From: a virus
Taxonomy: Duplodnaviria > Caudoviricetes
Direction: 5' to 3' (one strand)
Length of the DNA: 64,000 bases
IMG/VR virus record: IMGVR_UViG_3300031867_000001
Coordinates: 64,001-128,000 of that record
The notes beneath the pieces were generated by a model that was not told the DNA's origin, ran no database searches, and worked only from the letters and a program-made list of their open reading frames with translations. Below are positions 2,635 through 32,947 of the stretch, one piece after another. The position numbers and the translations under genes were made by a program. Numbering within the stretch: position 1 is the stretch's first letter; every line of letters starts with the position of its first letter.

Positions 2635-2889
2635 TATTTTGTGTAATTCCATAATCACTGAAAAATCAATGAGGTGAAAATCCCCATAGAAAGGAGTGGT
2701 ATTTTGCCATGAATGAACTTGGTGAAATCTACGTTCCGGATACTTCCGGACAAGAAATTATTTGCGGTTAAACCGTAAATGAATGACATCGCCCGTGTAA
2801 TAACAGTACACGAAGCATACCAAACCTTAGGCAAGTTTGTGACCGAACATAAGCAAACGCATTTCAGTGATTATGAAATTACATAAATA
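2635..2889 (+). ncRNA. Structured micro-peptide RNA element, copy A (divergent)
   Basis: Closing stem TGTAATTCCATAATCACTGAAA (2642-2663) / TTTCAGTGATTATGAAATTACA (2862-2883); internal hairpin, SD, micro-ORF and stop-codon hairpin as in copies B-D. Confidence 0.7.
2709..2771 (+). CDS. 20-aa micro-peptide MNELGEIYVPDTSGQEIICG
   Basis: SD AAAGGAG upstream; paralogous to three other micro-ORFs. Confidence 0.75.
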   Translation: MNELGEIYVPDTSGQEIICG

Positions 2890-2971
2890 GTCAACAAATT
2901 TATGTATATTATAGACTGGGGCTTGTGTATATGAGCCCCATAAACCTATTTCCAATAAGGAGGAATTTATT

Positions 2972-3430
2972 ATGACACGTAAAGAAATGATTAAGATGAT
3001 CATGAGACATGGTTTCCCATACATCATCGCTGCAGCTTTTACAGAGATGCATATTCGTTATGGATATGCGCTTCCATATGTAGGAAGACCCGAATCAGAA
3101 GAACTTGACGAGGATATGTCCGTACTCGGTCACGTACCGATCGAGCATATTTCGTTCAATGGCAATCATCCAGATTTCGGGGATTGCACTTTCATTTTAC
3201 AGAAGTACAAAAGACGTGAGTATCGCAACAATAAAAGAACATACTACCGCATGTTCATACTCAAGGATGGAGAAGTGTGGGACGAACGTGGTCCTTTTGC
3301 AGAGCGCGAACTCTATTCGGACATTATTCTCGGAACTGATTTAATGGACAGATTCATGCAGTCGGATAATAGTTATAATACCGGACTGAAGATCTCTAAT
3401 CCTGTTGCTGAGATTAAGCATGTTTGTTAA
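2972..3430 (+). CDS. Hypothetical protein
   Basis: 152 aa ORF, SD AAGGAGG, preceded by AT-rich promoter-like motif and 5' hairpin. Confidence 0.75.
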   Translation: MTRKEMIKMIMRHGFPYIIAAAFTEMHIRYGYALPYVGRPESEELDEDMSVLGHVPIEHISFNGNHPDFGDCTFILQKYKRREYRNNKRTYYRMFILKDGEVWDERGPFAERELYSDIILGTDLMDRFMQSDNSYNTGLKISNPVAEIKHVC

Positions 3431-3442
3431 ACACATTATAAC

Positions 3443-3464
3443 GTCCCCCGCATAAGCGGGGGAC
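3443..3464 (+). terminator. GC stem-loop
   Basis: GTCCCCCGC-ATAA-GCGGGGGAC. Confidence 0.6.
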
Positions 3465-3477
3465 TCGTATATGTGGT

Positions 3478-3690
3478 TTTATGTATATTGACAAGTGCCA
3501 TGAAATTGACGGAGTGGAATTCTCCGTGTGAAAGGAGATGATAACATGGAGGAAGTTTATATCCCCGATACAGAAGGTTGTATCATCATTTGCGAATAAT
3601 CGTGAATGATTAAAAAAATAAACGGAAGCGGTTGCGGCTTCCGTGTCCGAAACACACAAACGTATCATGGCACTTGTCAATGTATATAAA
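3478..3690 (+). ncRNA. Structured micro-peptide RNA element, copy B
   Basis: 26-bp closing stem 3478-3503/3665-3690 with 2 G.U pairs; hairpin ACGGAG-TGGAATT-CTCCGT 3509-3527; 3' hairpin ACGGAAGC...GCTTCCGT. Confidence 0.8.
3546..3599 (+). CDS. 17-aa micro-peptide MEEVYIPDTEGCIIICE
   Basis: SD AAAGGAG; paralog family with synonymous codon variation. Confidence 0.8.
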   Translation: MEEVYIPDTEGCIIICE

Positions 3691-3748
3691 CGGAAGTGTG
3701 TTATATATCATTGTGTTCATAACACACAATCCGTTTATTTTTTCTCTA

Positions 3749-5080
3749 TTAACCAAGTTCCGCCAGAGCTTGGTTGATATCAAATGGTTTGATTGTACCC
3801 GCGACATCTAATGCTGGTGAGATGTACTTCTCAAGCTCTTCTTTCGCAACTGTTAAGAATGCTTTTGCAGTTTCAGGATTCTTTGCAAAGTCTTCGTATA
3901 TTTTCTTCCACGTAAACTTCTCGGAGATCTCTTCACCCTTTTCGTTAAGCACCTTGAAACCTGCCTTGTTACCCTTGAGACGACCCTTACTGTTCAACAA
4001 CAGTACGAGTGTTCGAATATTGTCAACACCATTCTTAGTCTTGTCAATAACGATTCTGAAACCAAGTCCGGTTTTATTATTACCAGACTGATTGGTGGAA
4101 AGTTTCGTGGGCTCATACAAAATTGTATTCCCATTGAAACCGTCTTGAGCTTCATAATAACGCGAGTCTTCTTTGATTTCACCTGTAAATGACATAACAG
4201 AAGAAGCATTATATTCAACTGATTTACCACCGCTGATCTTAATATCGTGGGATCCATATTGGAATTGCTTCTTCGGTCCAGAGAATGCATTCATTGCAAC
4301 ATTTGCATTCTCATGTGCGATTGTGATAAAGATGATATTAGCTTCTTTCAACATTGGAAGAATGTCGCATAATACACCTTTAAGTGTTTTAGCATTCTGC
4401 ATACCATCTGTATTGGAACGCATTTCCTTTTGTTTATCCCATTCTTTTGCATCACGAATCTCATATTCCTTTGAGATTACATCACTCAAGGAATCAAGGA
4501 ATAGAATCGTTGGTGGCATCAGCTTGATCGGTTCATTGTTACAATCAACAACACCTGTATCCTTTAACAGAATATCTTTATAACGCATCTTGTTCTCGTA
4601 GATTTCTGTTACGATTGTTTGTAATGTATCATAACCAATCGCACCACTCCTCAAAGCATAACGTGGAGAATCACCATTGAACCAATTGTCAGGTAATCCA
4701 GTCATATTCTTAAGACGCTGAATGACAAGTCTGTTTTCAGCATCAAGATGAATGACATTACCACCATTTGCAGATGCGATATTTGCAGCCATAATCATTG
4801 CAATTGTTGTTTTGAAAGACTGTGTTGGTCCAGTCACAACATTGAATGTACCGGCTTGAATACCAAGACACAACCGTTTGCCAATCAACTTACCATCTTT
4901 GTCTTTGATATTGACTTCATATCCAAGTGAATAGTCGATTACAGAAATACCTGTAGGATATGAATAATCAACAAGTGTATTTTTTGAAAATACAGAAGAC
5001 TGACCATTGTTCGACAGAATCGTCATTAAGTCAGCATCTTTCATTTCTTCATTCAAAACTGATTGTTTCTTATTAGCCAT
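3749..5080 (-). CDS. RecA/UvsX-like recombinase (jumbo-phage type)
   Basis: PTGISVIDYSLG, Walker A GPTQSFKTT, HLDAE, Walker B LFLDS, SGGKSVEYNAS. Confidence 0.85.
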   Translation of the reverse strand: MANKKQSVLNEEMKDADLMTILSNNGQSSVFSKNTLVDYSYPTGISVIDYSLGYEVNIKDKDGKLIGKRLCLGIQAGTFNVVTGPTQSFKTTIAMIMAANIASANGGNVIHLDAENRLVIQRLKNMTGLPDNWFNGDSPRYALRSGAIGYDTLQTIVTEIYENKMRYKDILLKDTGVVDCNNEPIKLMPPTILFLDSLSDVISKEYEIRDAKEWDKQKEMRSNTDGMQNAKTLKGVLCDILPMLKEANIIFITIAHENANVAMNAFSGPKKQFQYGSHDIKISGGKSVEYNASSVMSFTGEIKEDSRYYEAQDGFNGNTILYEPTKLSTNQSGNNKTGLGFRIVIDKTKNGVDNIRTLVLLLNSKGRLKGNKAGFKVLNEKGEEISEKFTWKKIYEDFAKNPETAKAFLTVAKEELEKYISPALDVAGTIKPFDINQALAELG

Positions 5081-5140
5081 TGTAATATACCTCTCCTTTA
5101 TGAAAATATTATTGGGTGTCCCATTTGAATCATATACATA

Positions 5141-5956
5141 TCAACTTTCATAAAGTTCTTTCAGCATTACTTCACGATTACGTTTAATTGCGTTACCAAG
5201 TCCGCAACTCATCTTACCCTCAGGACACTTGCCATTGATACAAGATGGTCCAGCATGTTTGAACAATGTTGGTGATACTTCCATACACTGTTTCCACATC
5301 TCCCATGCAACAGCACGAATCTCCCACTGTGCACGGTTGCACATACGATGTTTGAAGAAGTTATATAATGAACGAATATTCATTGTAACAAAGATCTTGG
5401 TTTCACATGCATTGGGCAATACATAACGTGCATCTTCATTTGCACTCTTCTTTGCTTTATTACGTAACTCCTTCTTGGTATTTTCAGAAATCATTGGTGT
5501 ACCATCTGGATTTGTTGTATATGTATCAATGTAATGATGATAATGCTTCATGGTTAAAGCATTCACCAACTTATCATATTCTTTTTGAACATTCGCCATG
5601 AATTCATCATACTCACTCTTCAATTCAGCATCTCCATAAATTGCGGGTGGAATGATGTAATTGAATTGTTCCATATTGACATATCTCTGGGACTGCTGTG
5701 AATATGATGCGATTCTGTGACGGACTAACTGGTGACTACAGCTACGTGAGATTCCTTCAATGGCGAATGTGAATGAAACATGTTCAACTGGGGACTCATG
5801 TCCAATCTCCATTAACATTTCCAAAAAAGAATGAATCTTTTCATCTGTTAAAGATTCTTGTAAGTCATCAATAGATGATGCGGAATAACATAACTTTGCC
5901 GCAGTTGCAATCACCTTTTCCGGTTCAGGTGTATGTGTAATTAGTTTAACCTTCAT
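5141..5956 (-). CDS. thyX: FAD-dependent thymidylate synthase
   Basis: GHESPVEH, ThyX motif [30 protein letters not shown]; start MKVKLI at 5956 with SD AAGGAGG. Confidence 0.95.
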
Positions 5957-6473
5957 TTGTGTGATCCTCCTTGTCGGTATCATCAGTTCTCATAATATCT
6001 TCCAATTCAGTTGTTAATGGTGTATGACCATCACTGATGGTGTATGGAGATGTTGAATCTGTATTAACCGTTATGAATGCATGTGGATATCCATTAATCT
6101 CATCCAGTATGTGTTTTGTTTCTTTCACAACACCAGTTGCTTGTTTACACTTTTCAGTCTCTGAATACAATGCAGTTGTGAATGATATGGGATTACACTT
6201 ATCAGCAGATATTACACAATCATCAAATGTGATTGTCAATGGACCAGTGATTGTAAGTTTGCCGTCTAAATAGTCTTGTACACGAACCGAGTGTTTAAAT
6301 CCATCATATCTTCGGAAAATAGCATTACCAGTTACTCGATCTATTTCAATAAACAATTCATATGACGGTTCATCGATATCTTCATATTGAAGCTTATACG
6401 GATAACCCGTCTTGAATAAAGACTCATCAAACACGTATGTTTGTTTTACAAAAAATTTATCCACGAGAAACAC
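5946..6473 (-). CDS. Hypothetical protein
   Basis: 175 aa ORF in operon with SD. Confidence 0.65.
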
Positions 6474-6558
6474 TCCTTTTATATGAAAAATGTATCAGAT
6501 TGTTTTGATGGTTTGATGATATATGCGGTCGGGGGATAATCCCCCGACCACGCTATTA

Positions 6559-6837
6559 TCATTTCTCTTTCTTTTGTACAATGTTCTTCAGCGTGACATA
6601 TTCGTCATACCGAAGATCATAGAAACTCATGGTTGTGTCATTGGTAAATTGCAAATCAATTGCATAATAGATTCTCGAGGTATTCACATCAAGAATCACA
6701 ATTGGTCTTTTTGCATTTTCAACATTTGTAGCAATGACAGATAGTACGATGGCGAACCCAATCAGAAGTGCAATACAAATGCCGTATATCTCTGATGGTG
6801 TTAATATACACCATTTTTGTTTTAATTTCATTACCAA
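6559..6837 (-). CDS. Small membrane protein
   Basis: One hydrophobic segment IYGICIALLIGFAIVLSVIA. Confidence 0.6.
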   Translation of the reverse strand: MVMKLKQKWCILTPSEIYGICIALLIGFAIVLSVIATNVENAKRPIVILDVNTSRIYYAIDLQFTNDTTMSFYDLRYDEYVTLKNIVQKKEK

Positions 6838-6846
6838 TATCCCCTC

Positions 6847-7182
6847 TTAATTATCTAAATGATACTGTACTATGTTTACTCCATACAGTTCAACAATATC
6901 TTGTATGATCAATGCAGCTGGTACTGCGAACATTCGATCTGTTGCAACATCATAAAACAGGAAGATCTCATTGTCGACGATTTTGGCTAATACATAAGTA
7001 CCGTCCATCTTATCAACGCCCCAATACCGTTTTCTATTTTGATATTGTATTGGGATTAAACTTTTGATATGAAACTTATCACCGACGTCAGAAATCTCCA
7101 ATTTAACATTGATCATACCGGATTTGAACATATCATCTGCATAATACGTTCTGCCCCACATTTCAAACGATTTGTTTACCAT
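6847..7182 (-). CDS. Hypothetical protein
   Basis: Likely start MVNKSF at 7182 after purine-rich SD. Confidence 0.6.
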   Translation of the reverse strand: MVNKSFEMWGRTYYADDMFKSGMINVKLEISDVGDKFHIKSLIPIQYQNRKRYWGVDKMDGTYVLAKIVDNEIFLFYDVATDRMFAVPAALIIQDIVELYGVNIVQYHLDN

Positions 7183-7204
7183 TCCTTTTCCTCTTCTCAA
7201 TAAC

Positions 7205-7357
7205 TTACTTGTCAGACGAAACATCATTTGACAACTCTTCGATTTGTTGACGAATGTGTTCACGCATCTTTTCGTCATAGACTACCTTGCCGGTTTCAAC
7301 GGCACGTTCAAACTCTTTGATGTAACCGTCTTTGTCATTTGGATGGGGATCATACAT
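7205..7357 (-). CDS. 50-aa hypothetical protein (MYDPHPNDKDGYIKEFERAVETGK...), not in ORF track
   Basis: Translated by hand; SD GAAGGTG; fills operon gap. Confidence 0.6.
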   Translation of the reverse strand: MYDPHPNDKDGYIKEFERAVETGKVVYDEKMREHIRQQIEELSNDVSSDK

Positions 7358-7376
7358 AATTAACACCTTCTTTTCA

Positions 7377-7658
7377 TTATACTTTGAATTTGATATTGTG
7401 TGTATTCACAAATTGAACATCCGTTTTGTGTTCAAAACGATAACATTCCGAACCAACCAAATCCGGTGTCAATTTGATTTTACAATACAATCCGTCTTCA
7501 TCGGATGGAACTGCAAATACCAAAGACTTATTGTATTTTTGATATAATACAGCATTGTCGATATTCTCATTGGTGGATGTGATTCGATACGTCCATCCAA
7601 TGTTGAAATAACTTCTGTCGAATATCAATCCGGAAAACTTTGTGTCACGATGCATCAT
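7377..7658 (-). CDS. Hypothetical protein
   Basis: 93 aa ORF, SD AGGAGG. Confidence 0.6.
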   Translation of the reverse strand: MMHRDTKFSGLIFDRSYFNIGWTYRITSTNENIDNAVLYQKYNKSLVFAVPSDEDGLYCKIKLTPDLVGSECYRFEHKTDVQFVNTHNIKFKV

Positions 7659-7660
7659 TA

Positions 7661-7816
7661 TTACATACCTCCTATAATATCAGCAATTACGATGATTACT
7701 CCAAGAACAATCAGTATCTTCGGAATCAAACCAACAATGGCATTTGCTCGTTCTTTTAATAATCGATCTTCTTCTCTGTCATACTTCTCATTGAATGATT
7801 CGTCATTTTTGTCCAT
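7661..7816 (-). CDS. 51-aa C-terminally anchored membrane protein (MDKNDESFNEKYDREE...ILIVLGVIIVIADIIGGM), not in ORF track
   Basis: Translated by hand; SD GAGGAGG. Confidence 0.65.
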   Translation of the reverse strand: MDKNDESFNEKYDREEDRLLKERANAIVGLIPKILIVLGVIIVIADIIGGM

Positions 7817-7832
7817 TTATAATTCCTCCTCA

Positions 7833-8909
7833 TTATTTTTCATCATGTTTGATTTTTGCTTCATATGAATGTATTTCTTCTGATAAATCAACTTTGTATT
7901 TTTGATTGATGAAATCGATCAAACCAACAATTGGTTCTGTCACAGTTGCTTGTTGATCTGTTGTTTCATCAACCGTTGGCAATGTTACATCGGTTATATT
8001 CTCCAATGGAGTAACTTTGAACTTTACATTCTCATTTTGTTTTGCAATATCCATAATTGCATGATACGTCATTAAATCCGGTATGTCTGTTGGATTAATA
8101 ACGAATCGATGTGGTGTTGTAATGTCATTGGATAAAGCATCACGTAATTCTTCTGGATCGTGAATCTCAATTGTCTTAAACTCTTTCGCAACTGGATTCT
8201 TTACTTTGATCAAGTTGAAATTATCATCACACATCACGATGTACTTTGTTTCATCTTCACCATATCGGAATCGTAACATTGATCCAGCGTAATACACACC
8301 ATTCCCAAAATCGGTGTATTCATGATAATGTCCAAATACACACAATTTGGAAATGCTGCTTAATGTTTCAACCGAATGCATGATTTCTGTTCCATGTGAT
8401 GTTACAACATTCTTTGTTTGAGACGACATTGGTCCATGTCCACATATCAAATCATATGTCTCATTGAATGCTTCTGTATAATCAACATCACCATATTCTT
8501 GTGGTAAATATAGTAGACGTTTACCAGATGGAAGTGTTATCTGAATCCAGTTCTTGAAATACAGAATACGTTCATCATATACATCGGATTTGTTTGTGAA
8601 ATTTGCAAAGATGTTGAATTGATTTCGATCATGTGAATATGTTCCTTCAATGATATGTACAGGAACATGTGTTCCATTCACACCACATCCATTGTAGTAT
8701 AACTTTAATATGAATGAAGATGCAAATGTCATTTCATACACATTCAATGCATGATCAAATAAATCACCACATACAACAATCAATTCACATGTTTCATTAT
8801 GAATGATTGCTTGCTTCTTAAATGTATCAAGTGATACAATCAAAGAGTTATAGAAATCTTCATTTGGTAGTTTCACTCCAAGATGTACATCCGCTAAGAA
8901 TAATATCAT
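7833..8909 (-). CDS. SbcD/Mre11-like nuclease
   Basis: Metallophosphoesterase motifs ADVHLG, GDLFD, GTYSHD, GHG, GHYHE, YAGS. Confidence 0.85.
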   Translation of the reverse strand: MILFLADVHLGVKLPNEDFYNSLIVSLDTFKKQAIIHNETCELIVVCGDLFDHALNVYEMTFASSFILKLYYNGCGVNGTHVPVHIIEGTYSHDRNQFNIFANFTNKSDVYDERILYFKNWIQITLPSGKRLLYLPQEYGDVDYTEAFNETYDLICGHGPMSSQTKNVVTSHGTEIMHSVETLSSISKLCVFGHYHEYTDFGNGVYYAGSMLRFRYGEDETKYIVMCDDNFNLIKVKNPVAKEFKTIEIHDPEELRDALSNDITTPHRFVINPTDIPDLMTYHAIMDIAKQNENVKFKVTPLENITDVTLPTVDETTDQQATVTEPIVGLIDFINQKYKVDLSEEIHSYEAKIKHDEK

Positions 8910-8986
8910 ATAAAATACCTCCCTTCATATAACATTGTCACTATAATAATTGTATTATAACGGGGCTATACGCCCCGTTATATACG

Positions 8987-9709
8987 TTATTCGTCATCGT
9001 GATACGGATCGTCAATATACATTGATGGTTCTTGATATTGTTGATGGAATATGTCATCGATTGATTGTTCACCAAAATGTTGTTGATCAATCTTGATGAT
9101 TTTTGCATAACGTGGCTGTGCCAACATACATGTTTTCAAATTAACCGGTGTTTTACGACCACCCAACCATCCAATATCAATTTGATTTGTATATGGAATA
9201 ATGTACGTGTGATATCCATGTAAGTGTGCATGAATATTCAAGTCATATTTATTCTCAACAGGAACGTGTGTAAATATAATATGATTCCAAACAAATGAAT
9301 CCACGATATATCGGAATCCACATTCTTTGTAGAATGAATCTGGGAATAAATCATTATTACCACGAACCATGATCATTTTCTTACCAAAGTTCTGAATCAC
9401 TGCTTTCAATTCATCTTTATTTTGGAATTCTCCATCGACTAAATCCCCCATAAAGATGAATAAGTCTTCTGGTCCAATTCCATTCTTAAAGCTGTTGATA
9501 ACTGTAGTGAAATCAGAACGCTTATGACATTCAGGTTTATTCTTTTCATTTCTTAACCATAAATGCCAGTCGCATCCAAGCAGGACTTTGTGTCCTGCTT
9601 GAAGCGTATTATTAATCAACCGACTGATGTCGGTCGAGTGCTCTTTATCTGGATCTTTTAACTTCTCCATCAAGTTGTCTTCTTTACGACGTTGCTGATT
9701 GATGTTCAT
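8987..9709 (-). CDS. Calcineurin-like metallophosphoesterase
   Basis: DWH, GDLVD, GNND, THVP, NIHAHLH. Confidence 0.8.
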   Translation of the reverse strand: MNINQQRRKEDNLMEKLKDPDKEHSTDISRLINNTLQAGHKVLLGCDWHLWLRNEKNKPECHKRSDFTTVINSFKNGIGPEDLFIFMGDLVDGEFQNKDELKAVIQNFGKKMIMVRGNNDLFPDSFYKECGFRYIVDSFVWNHIIFTHVPVENKYDLNIHAHLHGYHTYIIPYTNQIDIGWLGGRKTPVNLKTCMLAQPRYAKIIKIDQQHFGEQSIDDIFHQQYQEPSMYIDDPYHDDE

Positions 9710-10127
9710 GTAGATTCATCCTCTCTTTGATTTGTCGGTTTAATCCATTGTCAATGAATTCCCCATTTTCAACCAGAGAGAAATACTTAAACAGCTTAGA
9801 GTTGATGCGGACTTTGCAAACAACAAATCCATCATCATTCTTCATTAACTGAATATCGATCATGCTGATGATATCATGATAAGCCGCGATCACAGCCTTG
9901 TACAACACATTGAACAATGCATTGTGGAATTCGTCGATGCGGTCTTCATCGATTGGAAGTACATCGGGTGTGAAACCGCACTGATAGAAGTCACTGACAT
10001 GACACTGGATGATATGCTTTTGGTCGTCCTTCAATAACACATTCAGTGCCAAGCCATTATACTTCTTCTCAACATCATACGTTGCTCGTGCAACATTGTC
10101 AATATAAACTATTGCTAATTTATTCAT
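9684..10127 (-). CDS. Hypothetical protein
   Basis: 147 aa ORF in operon. Confidence 0.65.
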   Translation of the reverse strand: MNKLAIVYIDNVARATYDVEKKYNGLALNVLLKDDQKHIIQCHVSDFYQCGFTPDVLPIDEDRIDEFHNALFNVLYKAVIAAYHDIISMIDIQLMKNDDGFVVCKVRINSKLFKYFSLVENGEFIDNGLNRQIKERMNLHEHQSATS

Positions 10128-10169
10128 AATACTTCTCCATTCTTTTTATGATGTATAAACAGTGCCCCA

Positions 10170-12053
10170 TTACAGGGCACCGTTCATAACATCATCGATT
10201 GTGTATATCGGTTTTCCTAAGTTCTGTGCTTTTGCAACTTTGGAAGACTGATATGTGATCTGAGGAATTACCAGTGCTTTCACACCTTTATTCCATGCTT
10301 CTGTTACGTCATAACCCTTCTGCTGTAATAAATTGATTAAGTCTTTATCCCGTGTTCCAGAAATACAGATTGTCCCTTTATCATTCTGCATTGCAACTGG
10401 GATTTCGAATTTGACATAATTGATGATTGTGGATATATCGTCCCAATATCGTGTAATACCAATCCGGATTGCTTGTTCTGTCAGTGGTCCAATACCAACT
10501 GTATCCCACAGAATCTTATTCAAGAAATCATCCGGTGTATCCCGCATACACATTTCGGTTATATCCTTAATCATTTCTGGATTGTTCTTACCATAAACCG
10601 AATCAAGAATAATCTCCCATTTCTTATTGGATACATTTTCACATGGGAATGATCCAAGCCATCTGGATACGGGAACATTGAATGATGATTGTTTCAATGA
10701 ACGAATCATGTTCTGTAATGATCTGAATCCAAATCCATCCACTTCGGCAGCTTCCATCAAATCCATTACATATAGATCAGAGATTTGTCTGATATATCCA
10801 GACTCATACAGTCGCTTTATGAATCCTTCCGAAACACCAAACACTTTCATGTTCTTACAATACCGGATGATGTTACCACATTTCACACCATCACAATTTG
10901 GATTGACACACTTAACTTGCTTCAACGAAGACATGTTAAGCTTCTCTCCACAGATTGGGCATTTGTCTGGGATTGGAATTGGTAATGTTCCATCGCCATT
11001 GGAACCAATGAAGTATGGCACGATGTTGTACATAATACGAACCGTATCTCCAAACTTCAAGTTCATATTGGCAACTCTTTCGAATGTCGACAATCCGACA
11101 TTTTGAACGATGACATTTCCGAATACAACTGGTTCAACAATTGCAACTGGAGTGATATGACCGGAATTACCGAATTGCCAACTGATATCTTTCAGCTTCG
11201 TTTCTTGTACGAGATTCAGTATCTTGATAGCAACTTCATTGGATGGATCTGTTACGACATCTTCATCTTCCTCATCAATGTGTATGGTGGAAGATACAAC
11301 AACTCCATCACATTCAAATTCATATTTCCCAACATTAACGTGAGCTTGATTGGATAATAATCTATCAACGAATGCTTGAATACATTCATAGTCATTCTTC
11401 TGATAAACAACAGATACATCCATCAACATATCCGGAATATGTTGAAACTTCCAAGTGTACACACGTAATGGAACTAATGTAATCAAATTACCAACCTCGG
11501 CATTACGTGATGTAATTGTTGCAGCAACAACATCTCTCGGTCGTTTGTACTTGTGTGAGAATTGTGATTTGAATATGTTGATATCCAAGATTGCTTCAAA
11601 CTTCACGGCAGTTACATCATCATACCACTTTACTATCCAATCATGGATCGTATTGATATGAGACTTGAATACATCTGTTACATCAACAGATTCTCCATTG
11701 TCATAATCACCCCTTGTGAAGAATCTACCGGATGCAACATCATATGCAACAGACGTTCCATCGAACTTTGGTTGAACGCATACCAAATCACTGACTTGAT
11801 GTTTGTTAACCCATTCTTCATATACTGGCTGATTCTCGCGCATTGGTGTTCGTACGCCATAGACTTTTGGAAGTGTTCCGACAACGTCATTCACAGCATC
11901 GGATTGTTTTTGACGTGTAAATGGTCTGGCGGATTCGCCATGTTCTTTGATATACTCTTCCAACAACTTGTCATATTCAGAGTCTTCGATCAAGGGGGTG
12001 CCATGTGAATATGCCTCGATATATTTGTCAAGCTCTTCTTTTGTGATACTCAT
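10170..12053 (-). CDS. ligA: NAD+-dependent DNA ligase
   Basis: IEDSEYDKL, KFDG, TRGD, DGVVV, OB-fold G.ITPVA.VEPV, Zn finger CPICG..C.NPNC, C-terminal BRCT (ISGTR...SSKVAKA). Confidence 0.93.
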   Translation of the reverse strand: MSITKEELDKYIEAYSHGTPLIEDSEYDKLLEEYIKEHGESARPFTRQKQSDAVNDVVGTLPKVYGVRTPMRENQPVYEEWVNKHQVSDLVCVQPKFDGTSVAYDVASGRFFTRGDYDNGESVDVTDVFKSHINTIHDWIVKWYDDVTAVKFEAILDINIFKSQFSHKYKRPRDVVAATITSRNAEVGNLITLVPLRVYTWKFQHIPDMLMDVSVVYQKNDYECIQAFVDRLLSNQAHVNVGKYEFECDGVVVSSTIHIDEEDEDVVTDPSNEVAIKILNLVQETKLKDISWQFGNSGHITPVAIVEPVVFGNVIVQNVGLSTFERVANMNLKFGDTVRIMYNIVPYFIGSNGDGTLPIPIPDKCPICGEKLNMSSLKQVKCVNPNCDGVKCGNIIRYCKNMKVFGVSEGFIKRLYESGYIRQISDLYVMDLMEAAEVDGFGFRSLQNMIRSLKQSSFNVPVSRWLGSFPCENVSNKKWEIILDSVYGKNNPEMIKDITEMCMRDTPDDFLNKILWDTVGIGPLTEQAIRIGITRYWDDISTIINYVKFEIPVAMQNDKGTICISGTRDKDLINLLQQKGYDVTEAWNKGVKALVIPQITYQSSKVAKAQNLGKPIYTIDDVMNGAL

Positions 12054-12388
12054 GACTCATCACCTGTTTCCTCTTTCGCGACAAACGTATCGGTTTCACG
12101 GATCTGACGATAAAAGCATGCATAATGCTCTTCACGTTCTTTGGCATATTGATGAATCTTGAACGCTCCAGAGTTCATCGTGTTCTTGTTGTGATTGTGG
12201 TCCCAGAATACGCCCATTCTTGAAGATGTATACGAACGATGATCAACCCCTGTTTTCAGTGAGATGATCTTGAACAATGCATCTTTCAGAATTGTCGGAT
12301 CTGAGGCTTTGATGATTTTAATGTCCATATCCACGAGTTGGTTTCCTTTGAAGTGTGACAATGATACTGCATACTTCATAAGAATCAC
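12050..12388 (-). CDS. Hypothetical protein
   Basis: 112 aa ORF overlapping ligA start. Confidence 0.65.
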   Translation of the reverse strand: MILMKYAVSLSHFKGNQLVDMDIKIIKASDPTILKDALFKIISLKTGVDHRSYTSSRMGVFWDHNHNKNTMNSGAFKIHQYAKEREEHYACFYRQIRETDTFVAKEETGDES

Positions 12389-12421
12389 ATCCTTTCTTGT
12401 AGTATAATGAATCGTAAATGA

Positions 12422-12565
12422 TTACTCGTTGAATAATTCTTCTAACATCAAATTCGCATCTTCAACAACCGCCATTGACTCTGCGAATAAATAGAACTCT
12501 TCTAACGATTCACAACCCCATTCATCCATAAGTTGGGGAACACTTGTAATCATCATGTTTTCCAT
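12422..12565 (-). CDS. 47-aa acidic protein (MENMMITSVPQLMDEWGCESLEEFYLFAES...), not in ORF track
   Basis: Translated by hand; SD GAGGTG. Confidence 0.6.
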   Translation of the reverse strand: MENMMITSVPQLMDEWGCESLEEFYLFAESMAVVEDANLMLEELFNE

Positions 12566-12584
12566 ATTAACACCTCATTTCTGT

Positions 12585-12686
12585 TTAATGCCATGACGTT
12601 AACAAGTCAGCCAGAATCTCGGCTAAACTACTTCCACTGTCCTCGTTATCGTCATTGTCATTGTCGAATAATACAAACTCTTCCAT
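12585..12686 (-). CDS. 33-aa acidic peptide MEEFVLFDNDNDDNEDSGSSLAEILADLLTSWH, not in ORF track
   Basis: Translated by hand; SD AGGAGG. Confidence 0.55.
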   Translation of the reverse strand: MEEFVLFDNDNDDNEDSGSSLAEILADLLTSWH

Positions 12687-12715
12687 TTCTTTTCCTCCTG
12701 ATGAACTTTATAAAT

Positions 12716-12917
12716 AACCATTTTGAACATTGTGATGAGTTGGTTTGTTGTGGACGTGTGGAAGTTGCTACCTTCCACATTTATTATTTTTTAATTATCC
12801 ACGATTATTCGCAGATGATGCTACCAGTTGTGTCTGGAATATAAACTTCTTGCATTATGTAACACCTCCTTTGTACGGAGAATTCCACTCCGTATATTTC
12901 ACAATGTTCAATTGGTT
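12716..12917 (-). ncRNA. Structured micro-peptide RNA element, copy C
   Basis: Closing stem TTGAACATTGTGA/TCACAATGTTCAA (12899-12911/12723-12735) plus flanks; ACGGAG-TGGAATT-CTCCGT hairpin; GTGGAAG..CTTCCAC hairpin. Confidence 0.8.
12805..12855 (-). CDS. 16-aa micro-peptide MQEVYIPDTTGSIICE
   Basis: SD AAAGGAGG; paralog family. Confidence 0.8.
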   Translation of the reverse strand: MQEVYIPDTTGSIICE

Positions 12918-12960
12918 TTTGGGTAGTATAAGCGGGGGAATATTCCCCCACTTATACCAT

Positions 12961-12980
12961 ATTAATTATATATTTATTTG
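12961..12980 (-). promoter_or_regulatory. Putative phage early promoter AAATAAATATATAATTAAT
   Basis: Same or similar motif recurs at 32984, 45468, 46053 upstream of small non-structural genes, each followed by a hairpin. Confidence 0.55.
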
Positions 12981-13372
12981 CTGATAAAATTATTATCCTC
13001 GGTTAAACCATTTTTGATCAATTCATTGAGTGTGTCTCGCTGCTTTTGTGTCATTATGTATTCAGGTGGACACATATAACCACGTGTGTATACACATATG
13101 CATTTGGATCGAATGATTAACCATTCAACCCAACCATATACAGAGAACTGTTGTTCCGCTTCATCTTGGACATCCTTCATACACATGTCTGGATTTTGTT
13201 TCAATATCATTTCAACCAATTTCCGTTCATGTGATGGGATTGCATAATGAACAACACCATCTTCATCAATAACAGCTTCCATGTAATTGACAAACGTTTT
13301 CTTATGTCTGTCGATTGAAAATGGTAATGCAAATGTTTCTTCAGGTGTGTAAATAAGCTCAACCTTTTCCAT
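12974..13372 (-). CDS. Hypothetical protein
   Basis: Likely start MEKVEL at 13372 with SD AAGGAG. Confidence 0.65.
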   Translation of the reverse strand: MEKVELIYTPEETFALPFSIDRHKKTFVNYMEAVIDEDGVVHYAIPSHERKLVEMILKQNPDMCMKDVQDEAEQQFSVYGWVEWLIIRSKCICVYTRGYMCPPEYIMTQKQRDTLNELIKNGLTEDNNFISK

Positions 13373-13395
13373 TTCAAAAAACTCCTTTATTATGA

Positions 13396-13419
13396 TCATG
13401 GGGGCATATGCCCCCATGA
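13396..13419. terminator. Perfect palindrome/stem-loop after RNAP beta' gene
   Basis: TCATGGGGGCATATGCCCCCATGA. Confidence 0.6.
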
Positions 13420-13430
13420 CTTTGTATTGT

Positions 13431-14819
13431 TTATTCGGACATTCTACCAGCGCAAATTGCAAACCATTCACGGAGTGACAACTGGAATTCACCAGTAACA
13501 TAGTTGGTCATGCAAGAATACATGAATGGTTTGAAGCATTCATAACCAAACTGATCCAAGAATACATAATCCAACTGATCTCCATCAAAGTCCGCATTCA
13601 TTCCACCAAGCGGTTCAATTGTCAAGGAAACCGTATCATCTGCATCTTCGAACTTATAACGCTTTACTTTTACAAGTGCAATAGATGCAAGATTGTTTGT
13701 TGGTTCACGTAACATCAAGCACCATACACCAGCGTCAACAATCTCATCCAAGATCTTAACGATTCTTTGATCACGTTCATTCTCATCAATGAATCGACAA
13801 CTCTCTTCAAGTGTCCAACCATATCTGACAGACAATGTATGTGCAACTTTGTACTTATAAGCACCAAGCAACATATTATACGGAACTGCAATCTCATTGA
13901 TATTGAGTAATGGATCAAGTGTAATAACACCTCTTGCAGAGAAGTGATACGGACCGCCAACAATCTCGGAACGAATGAAACCGGTCTTCTTACCCATTTC
14001 ATTATCGATCAAATGATTACATGCTTCGAGCCAGTTGTTCTGGATACAATTCAGTGCGGAAATGACTTCTACATCAAGTTGCATGTATCGCAGCTGAAAT
14101 TGCAATGCAACAATCTTGGTTAACCAACGATTGATGGTTGGATAGAATTGAGATTCAGATGTTGTATTAACGGGTCTGAATGCAGTTGAATAAATCGGAA
14201 TATGTGATGTGAATACATCATTCTGGTGTTCCAACAGAATCTTCAAGTCTTCTTGCTTGGGTTTTGGACAACAATCCACCATGATGCTTTCGAAATCGGA
14301 CGCAAATGCATCAAATCCAATTCCCATATACTTGTGCTTGTTCTTGGGGATTTTCTTGATAATGGCATTGATGTCATTTGTCGCAACACGTCCACGTTTC
14401 TTTTGGTTCTGACGAGAATCAAATTCGGTATCTGCATCAGAGTATTTTACATCATGATCCGCCTTATAGTTACCGAGAATGAAATTCAGCATATTATTGC
14501 CGATACATCTTTTGATCAAGAAGTAATAAGATGGAGTGATGACTTTATGTTTGTTCAAATTAACCCAACCTGTATAATTGAAGTTCAAGGAATGCAGCAT
14601 AATTTCCGAACCACAGATTGGACACTTCTGACCAATAATGTCTTGACCAATAAACGCACCACAATCACAACGAAATTCACAATCGGTGAATTTGGACGAA
14701 TTCACCAGTGCTTGTGGATCCACTGGTGAATATGTGTCCTCATTCTCTATCTTAAAACCATTCCGAAGAATCATATCGGAATAGTACTCATGTTCCATGT
14801 TAATTCTCTCAATGATCAT
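13431..14819 (-). CDS. Phage multisubunit RNA polymerase beta' subunit (N-terminal/catalytic part)
   Basis: Zn-binding CDCG...CPICG, KTGFIRSEIVGG..FSARGVI, REP, catalytic NADFDGD; ends soon after, so beta' is split. Confidence 0.92.
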   Translation of the reverse strand: MIIERINMEHEYYSDMILRNGFKIENEDTYSPVDPQALVNSSKFTDCEFRCDCGAFIGQDIIGQKCPICGSEIMLHSLNFNYTGWVNLNKHKVITPSYYFLIKRCIGNNMLNFILGNYKADHDVKYSDADTEFDSRQNQKKRGRVATNDINAIIKKIPKNKHKYMGIGFDAFASDFESIMVDCCPKPKQEDLKILLEHQNDVFTSHIPIYSTAFRPVNTTSESQFYPTINRWLTKIVALQFQLRYMQLDVEVISALNCIQNNWLEACNHLIDNEMGKKTGFIRSEIVGGPYHFSARGVITLDPLLNINEIAVPYNMLLGAYKYKVAHTLSVRYGWTLEESCRFIDENERDQRIVKILDEIVDAGVWCLMLREPTNNLASIALVKVKRYKFEDADDTVSLTIEPLGGMNADFDGDQLDYVFLDQFGYECFKPFMYSCMTNYVTGEFQLSLREWFAICAGRMSE

Positions 14820-14848
14820 ATGATCATTCCCCTCCTTCTTTTATACCA

Positions 14849-16492
14849 TCAATCCTTCATGCGTTCAAACAACATTGTGATCATGTCCAGTAAATCAATC
14901 GTCATTTGATTTGCATCATATACCAATGGAACATTTAACAACGATGGATCATTATGATTCACAATCGTGTATGATGTCATAACACTTTGAATGATACGTT
15001 CGATGTATACATTCGCATTCTTCTCACTCAACAGATACTGTTTCAGATTATTCAATCGAACATACTTCTTGATGTTGTTCATATCTTTCAAGGTCAATGA
15101 ACGTGTAGATGTAGACACAGTCTTTGCTGTAAGAATATTGATCAATGGACTGTTTACGGTATCTGCTTCTGTTAATCCATAAATGTCCATCACCAAATGT
15201 CTGACATACAGCAACAAGAAGTACTTCTGTTTCATGCTCAGGATATCCGTGCTGATGGACGAATGGAATTTGTTATACAGCACAGTCGATATCAAACTCT
15301 TGCTCAAATCATTCATCTGAATCAGATTCTGTAAATAGAAATCAACCGAAGATACATCAGTGGTTACAATGATCTTACCAATGATATTGTTCAAGTCAAG
15401 ATAAATCGCCGTATACTCTCCAGGATTAAAGGATCTGATGACACTGATTGGTGCAGAGGATGAAACGTTATCAGCCAATAATTGTGAAATGTCATCATCC
15501 ACATTTACCAAGTGATATCTCAACTGCACTTTTCGTGTGAGCTGTGTTGCACGGGAGACAACCGATTTGATCAAACCAACGCATGAGAATGTTGGGCGTT
15601 TATTCAAGGAATCCCATTCTGATGCAAATGTCAGTTTAATCAATCCTTCACACAACAAGGTCTTGTGCATAATACCCTGAGTGGTTCCAGGTGCAGTTAC
15701 TCCTTCTACTGCGCGCATTTCAAATATATTGGAATTGGACGAGATGCACTGCAAAACATTTTTGTTCACGTAGTTGTACAGTCTGACATACATGTTCGGA
15801 TTGATTTTGTCCATGATATACTTGAATGCTTTTGCAAACAACTCCACCAGATCTTTTGGAGAATTACCAGTGGAAATGATGAAGTGTTCGACATAAATAT
15901 GCATAATCTTAATCATGAAAGATACTGCATACATGTCTCTCAACATTTCAGGAGGGAATAAACCAACGACATTATCACCGACATTGTTGTCATCAACCAT
16001 TTCGAAGATCTTCTTCATGGTTCGTTCCGGAAACAATTCATCATAGATGTCTTTGAAGAATTCATCAAATGTGACGATTGTGTACATCTGTGAATCCGTT
16101 TTATATTTTGCAATCAACATACTTGTCAACAAATCATTGTCATCATCATACAATGCCGTGAAGAAGTTGATCTGTTCACAAATCAAGTTCTGAATCTCAA
16201 GACGTTTACTTCTCAACTGGAAGATCTGAATGTCTGGATCTGGAAGTTGGTTTGGAAATATCAAGTCCCAATTGACAATGATATGAGCACCATTATGACG
16301 TACAATGACATCTTCAGGAATTGGGTTCCATCTGATGAATCTGGTCTTTTTGTACTTACGACCATCCGCACCAGTGGGAAATCCATTATATGGATATTCT
16401 GTTCCATGATGAATGTTATACGTATATGTCTCCTCCGGATCATATGTGTATACCAAAGTCTTGTTCACAACATCGGGCTTTTTCTTCCCCAT
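14849..16492 (-). CDS. Hypothetical protein, possibly RNAP promoter-specificity (sigma-like) subunit
   Basis: 547 aa helical protein directly upstream of beta'; function inferred only from size and position relative to phiKZ gp68/AR9 gp226. Confidence 0.35.
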   Translation of the reverse strand: MGKKKPDVVNKTLVYTYDPEETYTYNIHHGTEYPYNGFPTGADGRKYKKTRFIRWNPIPEDVIVRHNGAHIIVNWDLIFPNQLPDPDIQIFQLRSKRLEIQNLICEQINFFTALYDDDNDLLTSMLIAKYKTDSQMYTIVTFDEFFKDIYDELFPERTMKKIFEMVDDNNVGDNVVGLFPPEMLRDMYAVSFMIKIMHIYVEHFIISTGNSPKDLVELFAKAFKYIMDKINPNMYVRLYNYVNKNVLQCISSNSNIFEMRAVEGVTAPGTTQGIMHKTLLCEGLIKLTFASEWDSLNKRPTFSCVGLIKSVVSRATQLTRKVQLRYHLVNVDDDISQLLADNVSSSAPISVIRSFNPGEYTAIYLDLNNIIGKIIVTTDVSSVDFYLQNLIQMNDLSKSLISTVLYNKFHSSISTDILSMKQKYFLLLYVRHLVMDIYGLTEADTVNSPLINILTAKTVSTSTRSLTLKDMNNIKKYVRLNNLKQYLLSEKNANVYIERIIQSVMTSYTIVNHNDPSLLNVPLVYDANQMTIDLLDMITMLFERMKD

Positions 16493-16524
16493 TTCTATTC
16501 ACTCCTTCTTTGTAAATATTTATG

Positions 16525-17157
16525 TCAAACATTTGTGATTCCACCGGATAAGATTCCTGTGTAAAATACAAACTTACCACTCTTACGCAATCGCTCATCG
16601 ATCTTACGTTCAATGATGGATTTCACGTAAATGAAGTCATCAACAATTGTCAATACAAATGGTGTTTTAATCTCCAAACATTTCTCAATGTTTGTTGGTG
16701 ATGAAGTAATATAAGTTATGTTAGGTTTATCGGATAAGATGGGGATCAAGTCCCCGTGTATATACTTCAATGATGGTGTTTCAAATGATTTTAACATTTT
16801 CTCAATGCCTGGTAAGTATGTGTCTGAATAAAGATATAATTCTGAAATGTTTTGTTTTCTCGCTTCTTGAATAATTTTATATGGGTAAATGAAATTTGGT
16901 ACAACCATTTGAACACTGTCTCTGGCGTCCATATAATTGAAATCAATCGAAAATTCCTTCTTAATCCATGAATTGATATCATATGTTTCGCGGTTGAGAT
17001 AGCTTAGGAGGATGTCCTCAAGGGACATCCTCTTCATCGCTTCTGTACATTTGTTTTTATTTATCATATAACTGATAATGTTGAAACCAATGGCGCTAAC
17101 CACATCTTCATATTGAATGATCAATCCATCTTTTCCAATGAATGATAAATCAATCAT
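16525..17157 (-). CDS. Hypothetical protein (possible degenerate HAD-like fold)
   Basis: 210 aa ORF in transcription operon; weak pattern only. Confidence 0.5.
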   Translation of the reverse strand: MIDLSFIGKDGLIIQYEDVVSAIGFNIISYMINKNKCTEAMKRMSLEDILLSYLNRETYDINSWIKKEFSIDFNYMDARDSVQMVVPNFIYPYKIIQEARKQNISELYLYSDTYLPGIEKMLKSFETPSLKYIHGDLIPILSDKPNITYITSSPTNIEKCLEIKTPFVLTIVDDFIYVKSIIERKIDERLRKSGKFVFYTGILSGGITNV

Positions 17158-17176
17158 ACGATGTCACCCCATGTGA

Positions 17177-17832: not shown

Positions 17833-18366
17833 TTATTCATCTTCATCATATAGATGCATAATATCATTTACCGTAAATTGGATACTGGTTAAATCATTTT
17901 TCCGAAGTCCAAACTGTGTCGACAAGAAGTTGTCAGTGTCTTCTTCAAACTCATCAAACCAATCCTTTTTCGATAACTGTTCCAGTGTATATGTACTTAC
18001 GGCTTTGATCAATTCATACAGATTCAACGCATGATCCATTAACGTATCAACATCGTTGATGTTAGTTGGTTCAATACCAAGTTTCTGCTTAATAGAATTG
18101 ATAATATCAATCAATGAAGTTAATGTTTCTCCAATGATGAAATTTCGTAATTGCAAATATGACGGAAAATTATCCGTCACATCTGCTTTGTGTTTATCCA
18201 ACACATCTAACATGTCATTCAATTGATCGATCAAACAATTCAAGTTGATCTTCCATTCATCGGGATCAACAAAGATTGCATCACCGTCAATCTGATATAT
18301 CTGATCAGTCAAGTCATAACGACAACCAGAATACTGTTCAATCCAGTTGTAAAATTCATCCCACAT
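17833..18366 (-). CDS. Acidic hypothetical protein
   Basis: 177 aa ORF with SD. Confidence 0.65.
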   Translation of the reverse strand: MWDEFYNWIEQYSGCRYDLTDQIYQIDGDAIFVDPDEWKINLNCLIDQLNDMLDVLDKHKADVTDNFPSYLQLRNFIIGETLTSLIDIINSIKQKLGIEPTNINDVDTLMDHALNLYELIKAVSTYTLEQLSKKDWFDEFEEDTDNFLSTQFGLRKNDLTSIQFTVNDIMHLYDEDE

Positions 18367-18391
18367 ACATTACATCTCCTTTTGTTGTATA

Positions 18392-25155: not shown

Positions 25156-25162
25156 TGTTTTA

Positions 25163-31388: not shown

Positions 31389-31413
31389 TCACTACAATTA
31401 CAAAAAACATTGT

Positions 31414-31435
31414 TGGGGGCGCATATGCGCCCCCA
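31414..31435. terminator. Palindrome between convergent genes
   Basis: TGGGGGCGCATATGCGCCCCCA. Confidence 0.65.
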
Positions 31436-31440
31436 CGTGT

Positions 31441-32076
31441 TTATATTGTGATGTTTAATGCTTTCATAATTTCAGCGCTATTGTATCTGCCTTCACCATC
31501 TATCTGTAAGCGGAAGAAGTTGTCCGTATCATCAACCGTAATGTTGTGTTTATTAACAACAACAACAAACTTGGGTATTGTGGCATTTTCGAAATAATAA
31601 GTATAATCGATGTTATGTTGTTTGAGTTTGTCAACGAACGATGATAAGATTCTGTATCTGATGAATGGATGTTGATAATTGTCATTTGTTGTTACAAACA
31701 ATGAACCATAACCGCTGTGGATGATTTTGGGAATGCATTTGTATTTCAAGTCAAGATATTCAATAGTCCGACACCATACATTTCCAGCAACATGAGTGGT
31801 TATGAATAATGCTGCATTTAAGATTGGAAATGTATAGTTTTCAGTAATGGTATAAGATACGAAATCTTTGTACGGATATGTTGTGTTATTCTTAAAGATA
31901 CCTTTATCCGACATGATTGGATCAATAAATACATCCCCATTGTTCATATTCAATACAATGGTCTTGTATGTTAACACAGCCCAAGTCTTGTTCTTGAAGT
32001 TATTGATTCGATAATAACTCTCGACAAGAATCTTTGCGAATGGATCCATTCGTTCAAACTCTTTTGAAATATACAT
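31441..32076 (-). CDS. Hypothetical protein
   Basis: 211 aa ORF, SD GGAGG. Confidence 0.65.
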   Translation of the reverse strand: MYISKEFERMDPFAKILVESYYRINNFKNKTWAVLTYKTIVLNMNNGDVFIDPIMSDKGIFKNNTTYPYKDFVSYTITENYTFPILNAALFITTHVAGNVWCRTIEYLDLKYKCIPKIIHSGYGSLFVTTNDNYQHPFIRYRILSSFVDKLKQHNIDYTYYFENATIPKFVVVVNKHNITVDDTDNFFRLQIDGEGRYNSAEIMKALNITI

Positions 32077-32098
32077 TTACATAGTTCCTCCCTTTATG

Positions 32099-32680
32099 TT
32101 ATACTTCTCTGAATTCACATGTGATGATATGACCAACCATATTCACCAGGCGTGTGATTGTTGTAATAGACACAACCAATGAATCATGATCTGCAGTCTG
32201 TTGGTACTTCAAAGTGAATTGTGCAACATTATTCGAGATGGTTTGTTTCAATACTTTCGACATATCTTTACGAATCATCTCTGGGGTGATCTTGAAATAC
32301 TCAATGACATATTCGTACAACCGATTGAATGTGGGGTTGGCTGTTTTGTACACCCATTCTTCAATCACATCAGACATATCCGGTGTGAATAATGTGATAA
32401 CACATGCGATGTTCGGTTGTTTGGCTTGTACTGTCTTAAGCAGTTCCCCAAGTTTTGATTGTGACATTGTATTGGTTGATGAATTCAACATTGTCACGAA
32501 TTGATCATTGAGAGATGTTTTGTGAATCACATCTGTCTCAACTGCTTTACAGAATGCAGACATGATGATATCACACGCACATTTCTTGGACGTGTCTATG
32601 ATGATATTTTCACTCACCATATCCTTTAAGTGTTGGATGGCGGATGGAGCCATCAATGCTCTTGCTTCTTCAAGTGTCAT
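32099..32680 (-). CDS. Hypothetical protein
   Basis: Likely start MTLEE, SD AAGGGAG. Confidence 0.65.
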   Translation of the reverse strand: MTLEEARALMAPSAIQHLKDMVSENIIIDTSKKCACDIIMSAFCKAVETDVIHKTSLNDQFVTMLNSSTNTMSQSKLGELLKTVQAKQPNIACVITLFTPDMSDVIEEWVYKTANPTFNRLYEYVIEYFKITPEMIRKDMSKVLKQTISNNVAQFTLKYQQTADHDSLVVSITTITRLVNMVGHIITCEFREV

Positions 32681-32748
32681 ATAAAATACTCCCTTCAAAA
32701 TATATTCATATGTTTAAACCCATGAATGGGATTACACTGGTAATTAAT

Positions 32749-32947
32749 CCAATTTGAACATTGTGATGAGTTTGCGGTTGTTTGGTCGGAAGTAGCAGCT
32801 TCCGTATTTATTTGATTTTAATTATTTGCGATTATTCGCAAATAATGATACTGCCAGTAGTATCCGGAATATAAATTTCTTCCATGAAATATCACTTCCT
32901 TTCACACGGAGAATTCCACTCCGTCAATTTCACAATGTTCAAATTGG
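32749..32947 (-). ncRNA. Structured micro-peptide RNA element, copy D
   Basis: Perfect 18-bp closing stem CCAATTTGAACATTGTGA (32749-32766/32930-32947); ACGGAG-TGGAATT-CTCCGT; CGGAAG..CTTCCG. Confidence 0.8.
32832..32885 (-). CDS. 17-aa micro-peptide MEEIYIPDTTGSIIICE
   Basis: SD AAAGGAAGTG; paralog family. Confidence 0.8.
   Translation of the reverse strand: MEEIYIPDTTGSIIICE

Follow-up and report, generated by a model that had tools for sequence, protein, structure and literature searches.

A dispersed family of end-paired structured RNAs encoding acidic micropeptides in an uncultured rumen jumbo phage

The window analysed here is a stretch of 64,000 nucleotides of a virus (Duplodnaviria; Caudoviricetes), corresponding to bases 64,001–128,000 of the IMG/VR record IMGVR_UViG_3300031867_000001. 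It contains four intergenic elements, A, B, C and D, which belong to a dispersed family of structured RNAs carrying a very short open reading frame (ORF). The complete record (G000) comprises 250,503 bp, has direct terminal repeats and a completeness rating of 100%, and encodes a split multisubunit RNA polymerase, a UvsX-like recombinase and an NAD-dependent ligase. A subunit of this polymerase shares only ~26% identity with its counterparts in phiR1-37 and Bacillus phage BpSp, and G000 is accordingly a distant, uncultured jumbo phage; the complete genome with its split polymerase bears out the jumbo-phage origin suggested in a first-pass annotation of the window, made from the sequence alone. 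The DNA and RNA sequencing runs containing G000 are bovine-gut metagenomes, the host animal setting being the cattle rumen.

The four elements lie where the first-pass annotation had placed them (Table 1), and their peptides translate as it had given them. Each RNA of the family is ~160–250 nt long, and its ends are joined by a long helix, P1, with arms of 17–26 nt in A–D and up to 29 nt in relatives. The end-pairing stem described earlier was recovered, and the upper bound of its earlier range, 13–26 bp, is extended by the relatives to 29 bp. Enclosed by P1 are a hairpin P2, a strong, extended Shine–Dalgarno (SD) sequence similar to AAAGGAGGTGAT, a micro-ORF of 13–20 codons, an A-rich spacer, a hairpin P4 and an unpaired C/A-rich stretch, each of which was found in A–D. 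A further helix, P3, which was absent from the first-pass annotation, is formed by the I-I-C-E codons and the sequence just past the stop codon, the stop codon itself lying in the loop. P4 is optional: it is missing in copy G (described below), in one metagenome copy and in a second type of scaffold. In B, C (12756–12780) and D, P4 together with the preceding A-run is a predicted intrinsic terminator of the opposite strand; no convergent gene that would account for it was found at C or D.

Back-translation of the motif E[VI]Y[VI]PDT gave four matches in the window, exactly A–D, with a chance expectation of 0.01. The covariance model (CM) proposed in the first-pass annotation was built and found no fifth copy in the window, and the genome-wide search added three copies beyond it, E, F and G, for a total of seven, on which a six-frame motif scan, an nhmmer profile and the CM agree. 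An additional nhmmer match of 12.5 bits (genome 185,925–186,005), inside an RNA-polymerase-like gene, was judged to be due to chance because its alignment requires frame-breaking gaps. About 15 more copies were found outside G000, all of them in a few rumen metagenome contigs or in G001, a related IMG/VR phage contig of 257,908 bp that has five copies. G001 was the sole related contig recovered when IMG/VR was scanned with exact and degenerate patterns, and the A–B region had no blastn match among 50,697 phage records. The number and sites of copies vary among the relatives (seven in G000 and five in G001, with both filled and empty syntenic sites); at one syntenic leader an element is present in G001 and only a plain 5' hairpin in G000, and the A–B region is arranged differently in the two genomes.

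Table 1. Positions of the elements, their parts and associated features. Positions refer to the window unless the genome or a contig is named; copies E, F and G lie outside the window and are given in genome numbering.
Feature	Position	Strand	Remarks
Element A	2638–2887	+	Most divergent copy; CM score 139.6 bits
A, upstream terminator hairpin	2608–2632		Terminator of the upstream gene, immediately before A
A, P1 5' arm	2638–2663	+	26 nt
A, P2	2669–2687	+	Variant sequence, loop TGAAAAT
A, micro-ORF MNELGEIYVPDTSGQEIICG and stop	2709–2771	+	SD 2690–2696
A, P3	2758–2783	+	Over the last codons, stop in loop
A, P1 3' arm	2862–2887	+
Element B	3478–3690	+	CM score 209.5 bits; after the terminator of ORF 2972–3430
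B, P1 5' arm	3478–3503	+	Partner 3665–3690
B, P2	3509–3527	+	ACGGAG/TGGAATT/CTCCGT
B, micro-ORF MEEVYIPDTEGCIIICE and stop	3546–3599	+	SD 3531–3537
B, P3	3585–3610	+
B, P4	3622–3644	+	With preceding A-run scores as a minus-strand intrinsic terminator
B, P1 3' arm	3665–3690	+
Element C	12716–12917	-	CM score 174.4 bits
C, P1 arms	12899–12915 and 12718–12735	-
C, P2	12875–12893	-
C, micro-ORF MQEVYIPDTTGSIICE and stop	12805–12855	-	SD 12865–12872
C, P3	12797–12816	-
C, P4	12758–12778	-
Early-type box ahead of C, TATATAATTAATATGG	12957–12972	-	Followed by 5' hairpin 12926–12957
Element D	32749–32947	-	CM score 185.7 bits
D, P1 arms	32930–32947 and 32749–32766	-	18 bp, perfect pairing
D, P2	32906–32924	-
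D, micro-ORF MEEIYIPDTTGSIIICE and stop	32832–32885	-	SD 32895–32902
D, P3	32821–32846	-
D, P4	32787–32804	-
Early-type box ahead of D	32980–32995	-	One mismatch
Further early-type box	~45465–45480	-
Element E	genome ~179,870–180,080	-
Element F	genome ~182,627–182,838	-
Element G	genome 32,663–32,827 (L003:264–428)	+	Different peptide, MGEIITGEEIFLG
Nonsense copy	L014:3980–4175 and L017:2196–2391	-	Identical in both metagenome contigs; L018 ortholog intact

Selection on the RNA structure is most evident in P1. The P1 arms of A, of B, of C/D/E, of F and of G are unrelated in sequence, yet they are complementary inside each copy. RNAalifold analysis of 16 copies recovered P1, P2 and P3; of the 35 pairs, 22 show compensatory changes. 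P1 positions are paired in 93% of cells, compared with 73% in column shuffles and 28–38% when the partner is shifted, and covariation was detected at 16 of its 19 pairs, a level reached by none of 500 shuffles; it is more modest in P2 (3/6 pairs) and P3 (3/10 pairs). Between B and its ortholog in G001, a compensatory G-C to A-T double change has occurred in P1. Across 20 copies, P1 contains 414 Watson–Crick pairs, 32 G.U pairs and 23 non-canonical combinations (14 A.C and 9 others), and the excess of G.U over A.C favours a helix formed in RNA of the strand that carries the ORF. The earlier claim of selection on RNA structure with wobble pairs in the sense orientation is upheld by these counts. 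P2 differs from P1 in that its sequence is nearly invariant, being identical, for types B–F, in counterparts of six of the seven G000 copies. A conserved motif TGRAAWT is located ~10 nt (10–14 nt) 5' of the SD sequence. A sigma-70-type promoter within P1/P2 was considered and dropped, since the hexamers are not conserved.

The micro-ORF is under purifying selection at the amino acid level, in line with the first-pass annotation. In 12 distinct ORFs all 15 third codon positions vary, as against seven first and four second positions, and the proportions of synonymous (pS) and nonsynonymous (pN) differences are 0.68 and 0.11, respectively (pN/pS ~0.16); nine codons lie clear of P3 and of any other helix, and they give practically the same ratio, 0.15. 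The start codon is ATG or GTG, the N-terminal extensions are of unequal length, and the distance to the SD sequence is 7–12 nt. The core of the peptide is [G/E]E[IV][YF][IV]P[DN]TxGx[I/E][IV][IF]C[E/G/N], with invariant Pro, Thr, Gly and Cys. The peptides contain four or five acidic and zero basic residues, have a net charge of about -4 to -5 and show a strand-turn-strand pattern. Antisense ORFs over the elements (e.g., ...LFANN.T..SIRNINFFH...) mirror the sense codons and were rejected as coding, because the variable third positions of the sense strand are their first positions.

Six copies in G000 encode the main type of peptide. Copy G retains P1, P2 and the SD sequence and lacks the YIPD residues, the Cys, P3 and P4; by alignment, its product is the usual peptide minus these four residues (YIPD), diverged elsewhere. 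The G-type ORFs of G000 and G001 (L004:2355–2512) differ by five synonymous changes and in their stop codon, and yet specify an identical peptide. The ortholog of the A peptide in contig L021 is MNEIGEVFVPNTNGQDVFCG. In G001 the usual peptide is also encoded within a second scaffold, which lacks P2 and has another 3' domain, with P1 and P3 kept. One metagenome copy, MG*IYIPDTDGVIVICD*, has an in-frame TAA at codon 3 and intact P1, P2 and P3; either it has only recently become a pseudogene, or it points to a separate use of the scaffold.

Searches of Rfam, protein databases and the literature returned no known family, in agreement with the first-pass annotation. With Rfam release 15, the window gave zero matches at the gathering score, and the E-value mode returned sub-threshold noise only (best 30.9 bits against a cut-off of 56). 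A 51-aa in-frame extension of the ORF, compared with 5.8 billion predicted proteins, matched itself only, as one spurious extended ORF. No longer proteins sharing words of the peptide were found in protein searches, a feature search of the ESM Atlas with the 20-aa peptide gave scores of up to 0.82, at noise level, and nothing relevant was found in the literature on the motif or, more broadly, on such elements. Matches from a scan of genome contigs, in a prolyl-tRNA synthetase of Methanogenium and in an unclassified bacterial metagenome-assembled genome (MAG), were attributed to chance, as was a match of the metagenome scan in a putative aminotransferase-like ORF. In the Methanogenium MAG (L022:371–406), the C-terminal zinc-binding part of the synthetase, KYIPDTEGTCIICG, is near the B peptide VYIPDTEGCIIICE; this resemblance is probably fortuitous and forced by the search pattern.

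Expression was assessed in four bovine-gut metatranscriptome assemblies from four studies, which were compared with positions 1–20000 of the window. Contigs over A extend over 2641/2644–2867 in three runs and 2621–2867 in the fourth, with depths of 34, 7.4, 8.6 and 10; contigs outside the elements in the same region have depths of 2–5.6. The depth of A is not inflated by its paralogs, since it has zero 31-mers in common with them. The RNA runs had been chosen via a stretch containing A and B. Copy C, which lay outside that query, is represented in run X11 by a contig of depth 16.3 (12730–12936), and an E-like contig in the same run has a depth of 13; an E- or C-like contig of depth 8 was found in run X21, and 0.70–0.80 of the sampled words of D are present in three of these RNA runs. 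Contigs end 6 nt into the 3' arm of P1 in A (2867, three runs) and in C (12730, one run). These ends were not taken as a processing site, because P1 is crossed by an E-like contig and because a paired 3' arm could yield such an end under random priming. A and C have the deepest contigs of the region in the four metatranscriptomes, which only hints at the 'nuclease-resistant mini-mRNA' of the first-pass annotation. The family is real, selected and, by its presence in RNA libraries, expressed, and it appears to be made up of structured small mRNAs for micropeptides.

The surroundings of the copies are of two kinds. A conserved box of ~40 nt, ATATATAATTAATATG, occurs at ~19 sites in the genome, often with TTGAAA 17 nt before a TAATAT hexamer. 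Most of the boxes are followed by a plain, stable 5' hairpin at about +1, and five are followed by an element: C, D, E, F and G are located directly behind such a box, with the P1 of F and of G starting near +1. By analogy, the box looks like a class of phage early promoter with built-in protection of the 5' end. Copies A and B, as well as their relatives, directly follow an intrinsic terminator, and their P1 stems, at 26–29 bp, exceed all others in length. The neighbours differ at every copy, and the downstream genes are unrelated to each other; downstream of B are a two-way terminator and then the convergent UvsX-like gene. The only other long-range inverted repeat in the non-coding DNA of the genome is a second kind of end-paired RNA (genome 241,101–241,245, minus strand), in which an exact 12-nt inverted repeat surrounds ~120 nt of hairpins. 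It is also located directly behind an early-type box and has neither an SD sequence nor an ORF.

The reading preferred here, to which about an even chance is given, is that the elements produce an end-protected, possibly processed mini-mRNA giving a high early dose of a small acidic peptide that acts in trans. Each element would be a self-contained micro-gene with its ends closed by P1. Early synthesis could proceed by two routes, either as the first transcribed unit from an early-type promoter (C, D, E, F and G) or by read-through of the preceding terminator (A and B, with the longer P1 of 26–29 bp). P1 would shield both ends of the RNA from end-dependent nucleases of the host and may also be a double-strand cut site releasing the module from the adjoining mRNA. 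All copies have 18–29 paired P1 positions, about the two helical turns of double-stranded stem that border RNase III-processed cistrons. Genes for RNase III, RtcB, radical SAM enzymes and reverse transcriptase (RVT_1) were not found in the complete genome; with no RNase III of its own, the phage would depend on its host for any cleavage of P1. The mini-mRNA would then build up well above the flanking messages, the strong, extended SD sequence would drive translation of the 13–20 codon ORF, and the six gene copies would supply an acidic peptide that, while the cell is being taken over, would act in trans and hit an abundant target of host (or phage) origin. A further proposal, which is tentative, depicts the element as a novel type of phage gene module, a portable cassette copied between early leaders and yielding a self-stabilising mini-mRNA; its 16-residue, hairpin-like peptide, delivered at a very high dose within minutes of the start of infection, may disable an abundant machine or defence system of the host, with the diverged G-type paralog as a second cargo.

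Several observations weigh against an end-protected mini-mRNA with a trans-acting product. The architecture, the covariation, the coding signature, the copy number and the presence in RNA libraries are established; end protection or processing, translation of the micro-ORF, timing, action in trans and the target of the peptide are inferred, with the 'early' timing based only on an analogy drawn from the promoter box. Conservation of the TGRAAWT motif and of the junction nucleotides goes beyond the needs of simple end protection, and the TAA copy with its intact scaffold indicates that a full ORF is not always needed for the scaffold to be retained. The RNA runs hardly cover B, and the E-like contig crosses P1 and reaches the SD sequence of the next gene. 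Assembled contigs, moreover, carry no information on strand, RNA ends, half-life or true level.

The same read-through contig indicates co-transcription with the neighbouring gene, which would also be expected of a cis-acting leader that tunes the downstream early genes, with the micro-ORF as an upstream ORF. The nascent peptide or its translation would then control mRNA stability, the access of Rho to the C/A-rich stretch or downstream initiation, and P1 would be a 5' stabiliser of the whole operon mRNA. Five of the seven copies are located between an early-type promoter and the first gene, a place taken in other early leaders by a plain 5' hairpin; the unpaired stretch, rich in C/A and poor in G, may resemble a Rho loading site, and the scaffold is retained in the nonsense copy. 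Such a function is nevertheless rather unlikely. A and B stand alone, B being followed by a terminator and a convergent gene, the genes downstream of the copies are unrelated, and the contigs of the elements are several-fold deeper than those of the downstream genes. The consensus fold and terminator scoring revealed no conserved sense-strand terminator or alternative helix in the elements. A leader-peptide attenuator in particular was rejected, as terminator-like sites inside the elements are on the opposite strand only and no alternative helix is present. From the motif to the stop codon, C has one residue fewer, which fits poorly with a strict tunnel-arrest peptide.

Activity of the structured RNA itself, for instance as a decoy or sponge for a host RNA-binding protein, ribosome or RNase, with the ORF of secondary importance, is considered quite improbable. 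It would explain the near-invariant sequence of P2, the conserved junction nucleotides and the spacing between TGRAAWT and the SD sequence, which is kept even where the P2 stem is lost, as well as the apparent abundance of the RNA in metatranscriptome contigs and, again, the nonsense copy with its intact scaffold. It does not explain why purifying selection on the peptide is strong, even for the residues encoded outside the helices, or why the peptide is retained in the scaffold lacking P2. The P2 loop has a GGA 17 nt upstream of the one in the SD sequence, an arrangement that, judged from the sequence, could resemble paired CsrA sites; however, this loop GGA is missing from A, which has the greatest depth of all copies in the RNA runs. 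A CsrA/Rsm sponge was rejected because GGA is exposed only in the P2 loop and the SD sequence, and the loop GGA or the hairpin is lost in copy A and in the P2-less scaffold.

A mobile or recombining DNA repeat of the type of miniature inverted-repeat transposable elements (MITEs), with inverted ends acting on the DNA level, is very improbable: the copies are dispersed, bounded by inverted repeats and unequal in number and occupancy between G000 and G001, but their arms are wholly different between copies yet complementary, the opposite of ends recognised by a transposase, G.U exceeds A.C in P1, A–D have no target-site duplication at their ends, and the region between the arms codes for a peptide under selection and has an SD sequence.

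Other candidates were considered, and most of them were rejected. Retron, radical-SAM and RNA-circle ideas all require phage enzymes that were not found; a retron non-coding RNA was ruled out by the lack of an RVT_1 match in the complete genome. The first-pass annotation had put forward an inhibitor, a signal or a modified-peptide precursor as possible functions; of these, modification of the peptide by a radical SAM enzyme is unlikely because the complete genome has no radical-SAM gene; with regard to maturases of ribosomally synthesised and post-translationally modified peptides in general, neither a radical-SAM gene nor a conserved neighbour was found, other maturase classes not having been searched. 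An arbitrium-like secreted signal does not agree with ORFs of 13–20 codons without a signal sequence and with neighbours that differ at each copy, and a hok-like type I toxin does not agree with acidic peptides having no membrane-spanning stretch. A MITE or Correia-like repeat was excluded on the arms, which are not conserved across copies, and on the lack of target-site duplication.

Among known systems, the family is most like the RNase III-bounded early messages of phages T7 and SP82, the 5'–3' closed hok mRNAs and the small RNAs encoding micropeptides, and it is a member of none of them. In the R0.3–R1.3 sites of T7 and in early RNA of the Bacillus phage SP82, long double-stranded stems are located between early cistrons and the processed messages are stable. 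Long stems and, as proposed here, protection of RNA ends are common to both; in the present family, one helix joins both ends of a whole mini-cistron, the cargo is a multi-copy ORF of 13–20 codons, cleavage is only a proposal and the phage has no RNase III. The hok-type mRNAs are long-lived messages with 5'–3' fold-back and a small ORF. Similar to them, the elements carry a small ORF in a compact mRNA whose 5' end is paired with its 3' end; they differ in the acidic peptide, which is not membrane-like, in a P1 that leaves the SD sequence free, in the lack of an evident antisense RNA gene and in the presence of several copies, five of the seven being located behind an early-type phage promoter. 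Dual-function small RNAs that encode micropeptides, namely RNAIII/delta-haemolysin, SR1/SR1P and SgrS/SgrT, are abundant structured RNAs of ~200 nt with a very short translated ORF; the present family has the size, the structure and the short ORF in common with them and is presumed to be abundant and translated as well. It differs in being phage-borne, multi-copy and closed by an end-to-end helix, and has no sequence or Rfam relation to them.

Two further groups are similar in part. Correia elements of Neisseria, ERIC and BOX are transcribed, dispersed hairpin repeats that can be cleaved by RNase III and have conserved ends and no selected ORF. The elements described here are also dispersed intergenic units with inverted ends, co-transcribed with neighbours, but their ends covary freely and their interior encodes a peptide. 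TnaC and other arrest peptides are leader peptides acting in the ribosome; as in their leaders, a short ORF with conserved amino acids precedes genes and is followed by an unstructured C-rich stretch, whereas here a sense terminator or alternative fold is lacking, two copies have no downstream gene and the spacing from motif to stop is variable.

ORFs of 13–20 codons escape gene callers, although in this family both the peptide and the fold show textbook selection, the copies number up to seven per genome and the RNAs are prominent in rumen metatranscriptomes. The family offers a tangible example, open to experiment, of a micropeptide that a phage encodes on an RNA chassis of its own, and it shows that the cargo of early leaders in jumbo phages can be exchanged. 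Its study could bring to light a novel means by which very short messages are stabilised, which would lend itself to an expression module for Gram-positive hosts, or a novel small inhibitor of some bacterial process.

Two further observations concern genes next to the copies. Between A and B, the window contains an ORF of 152 aa (2972–3430) with no PHROG match; it is missing at the same place in G001, where two head-to-tail elements are present instead. Downstream of G (genome 33,400–35,200), a run of small paralogous genes encodes proteins with very basic N-termini (MNxRxKKKR...).

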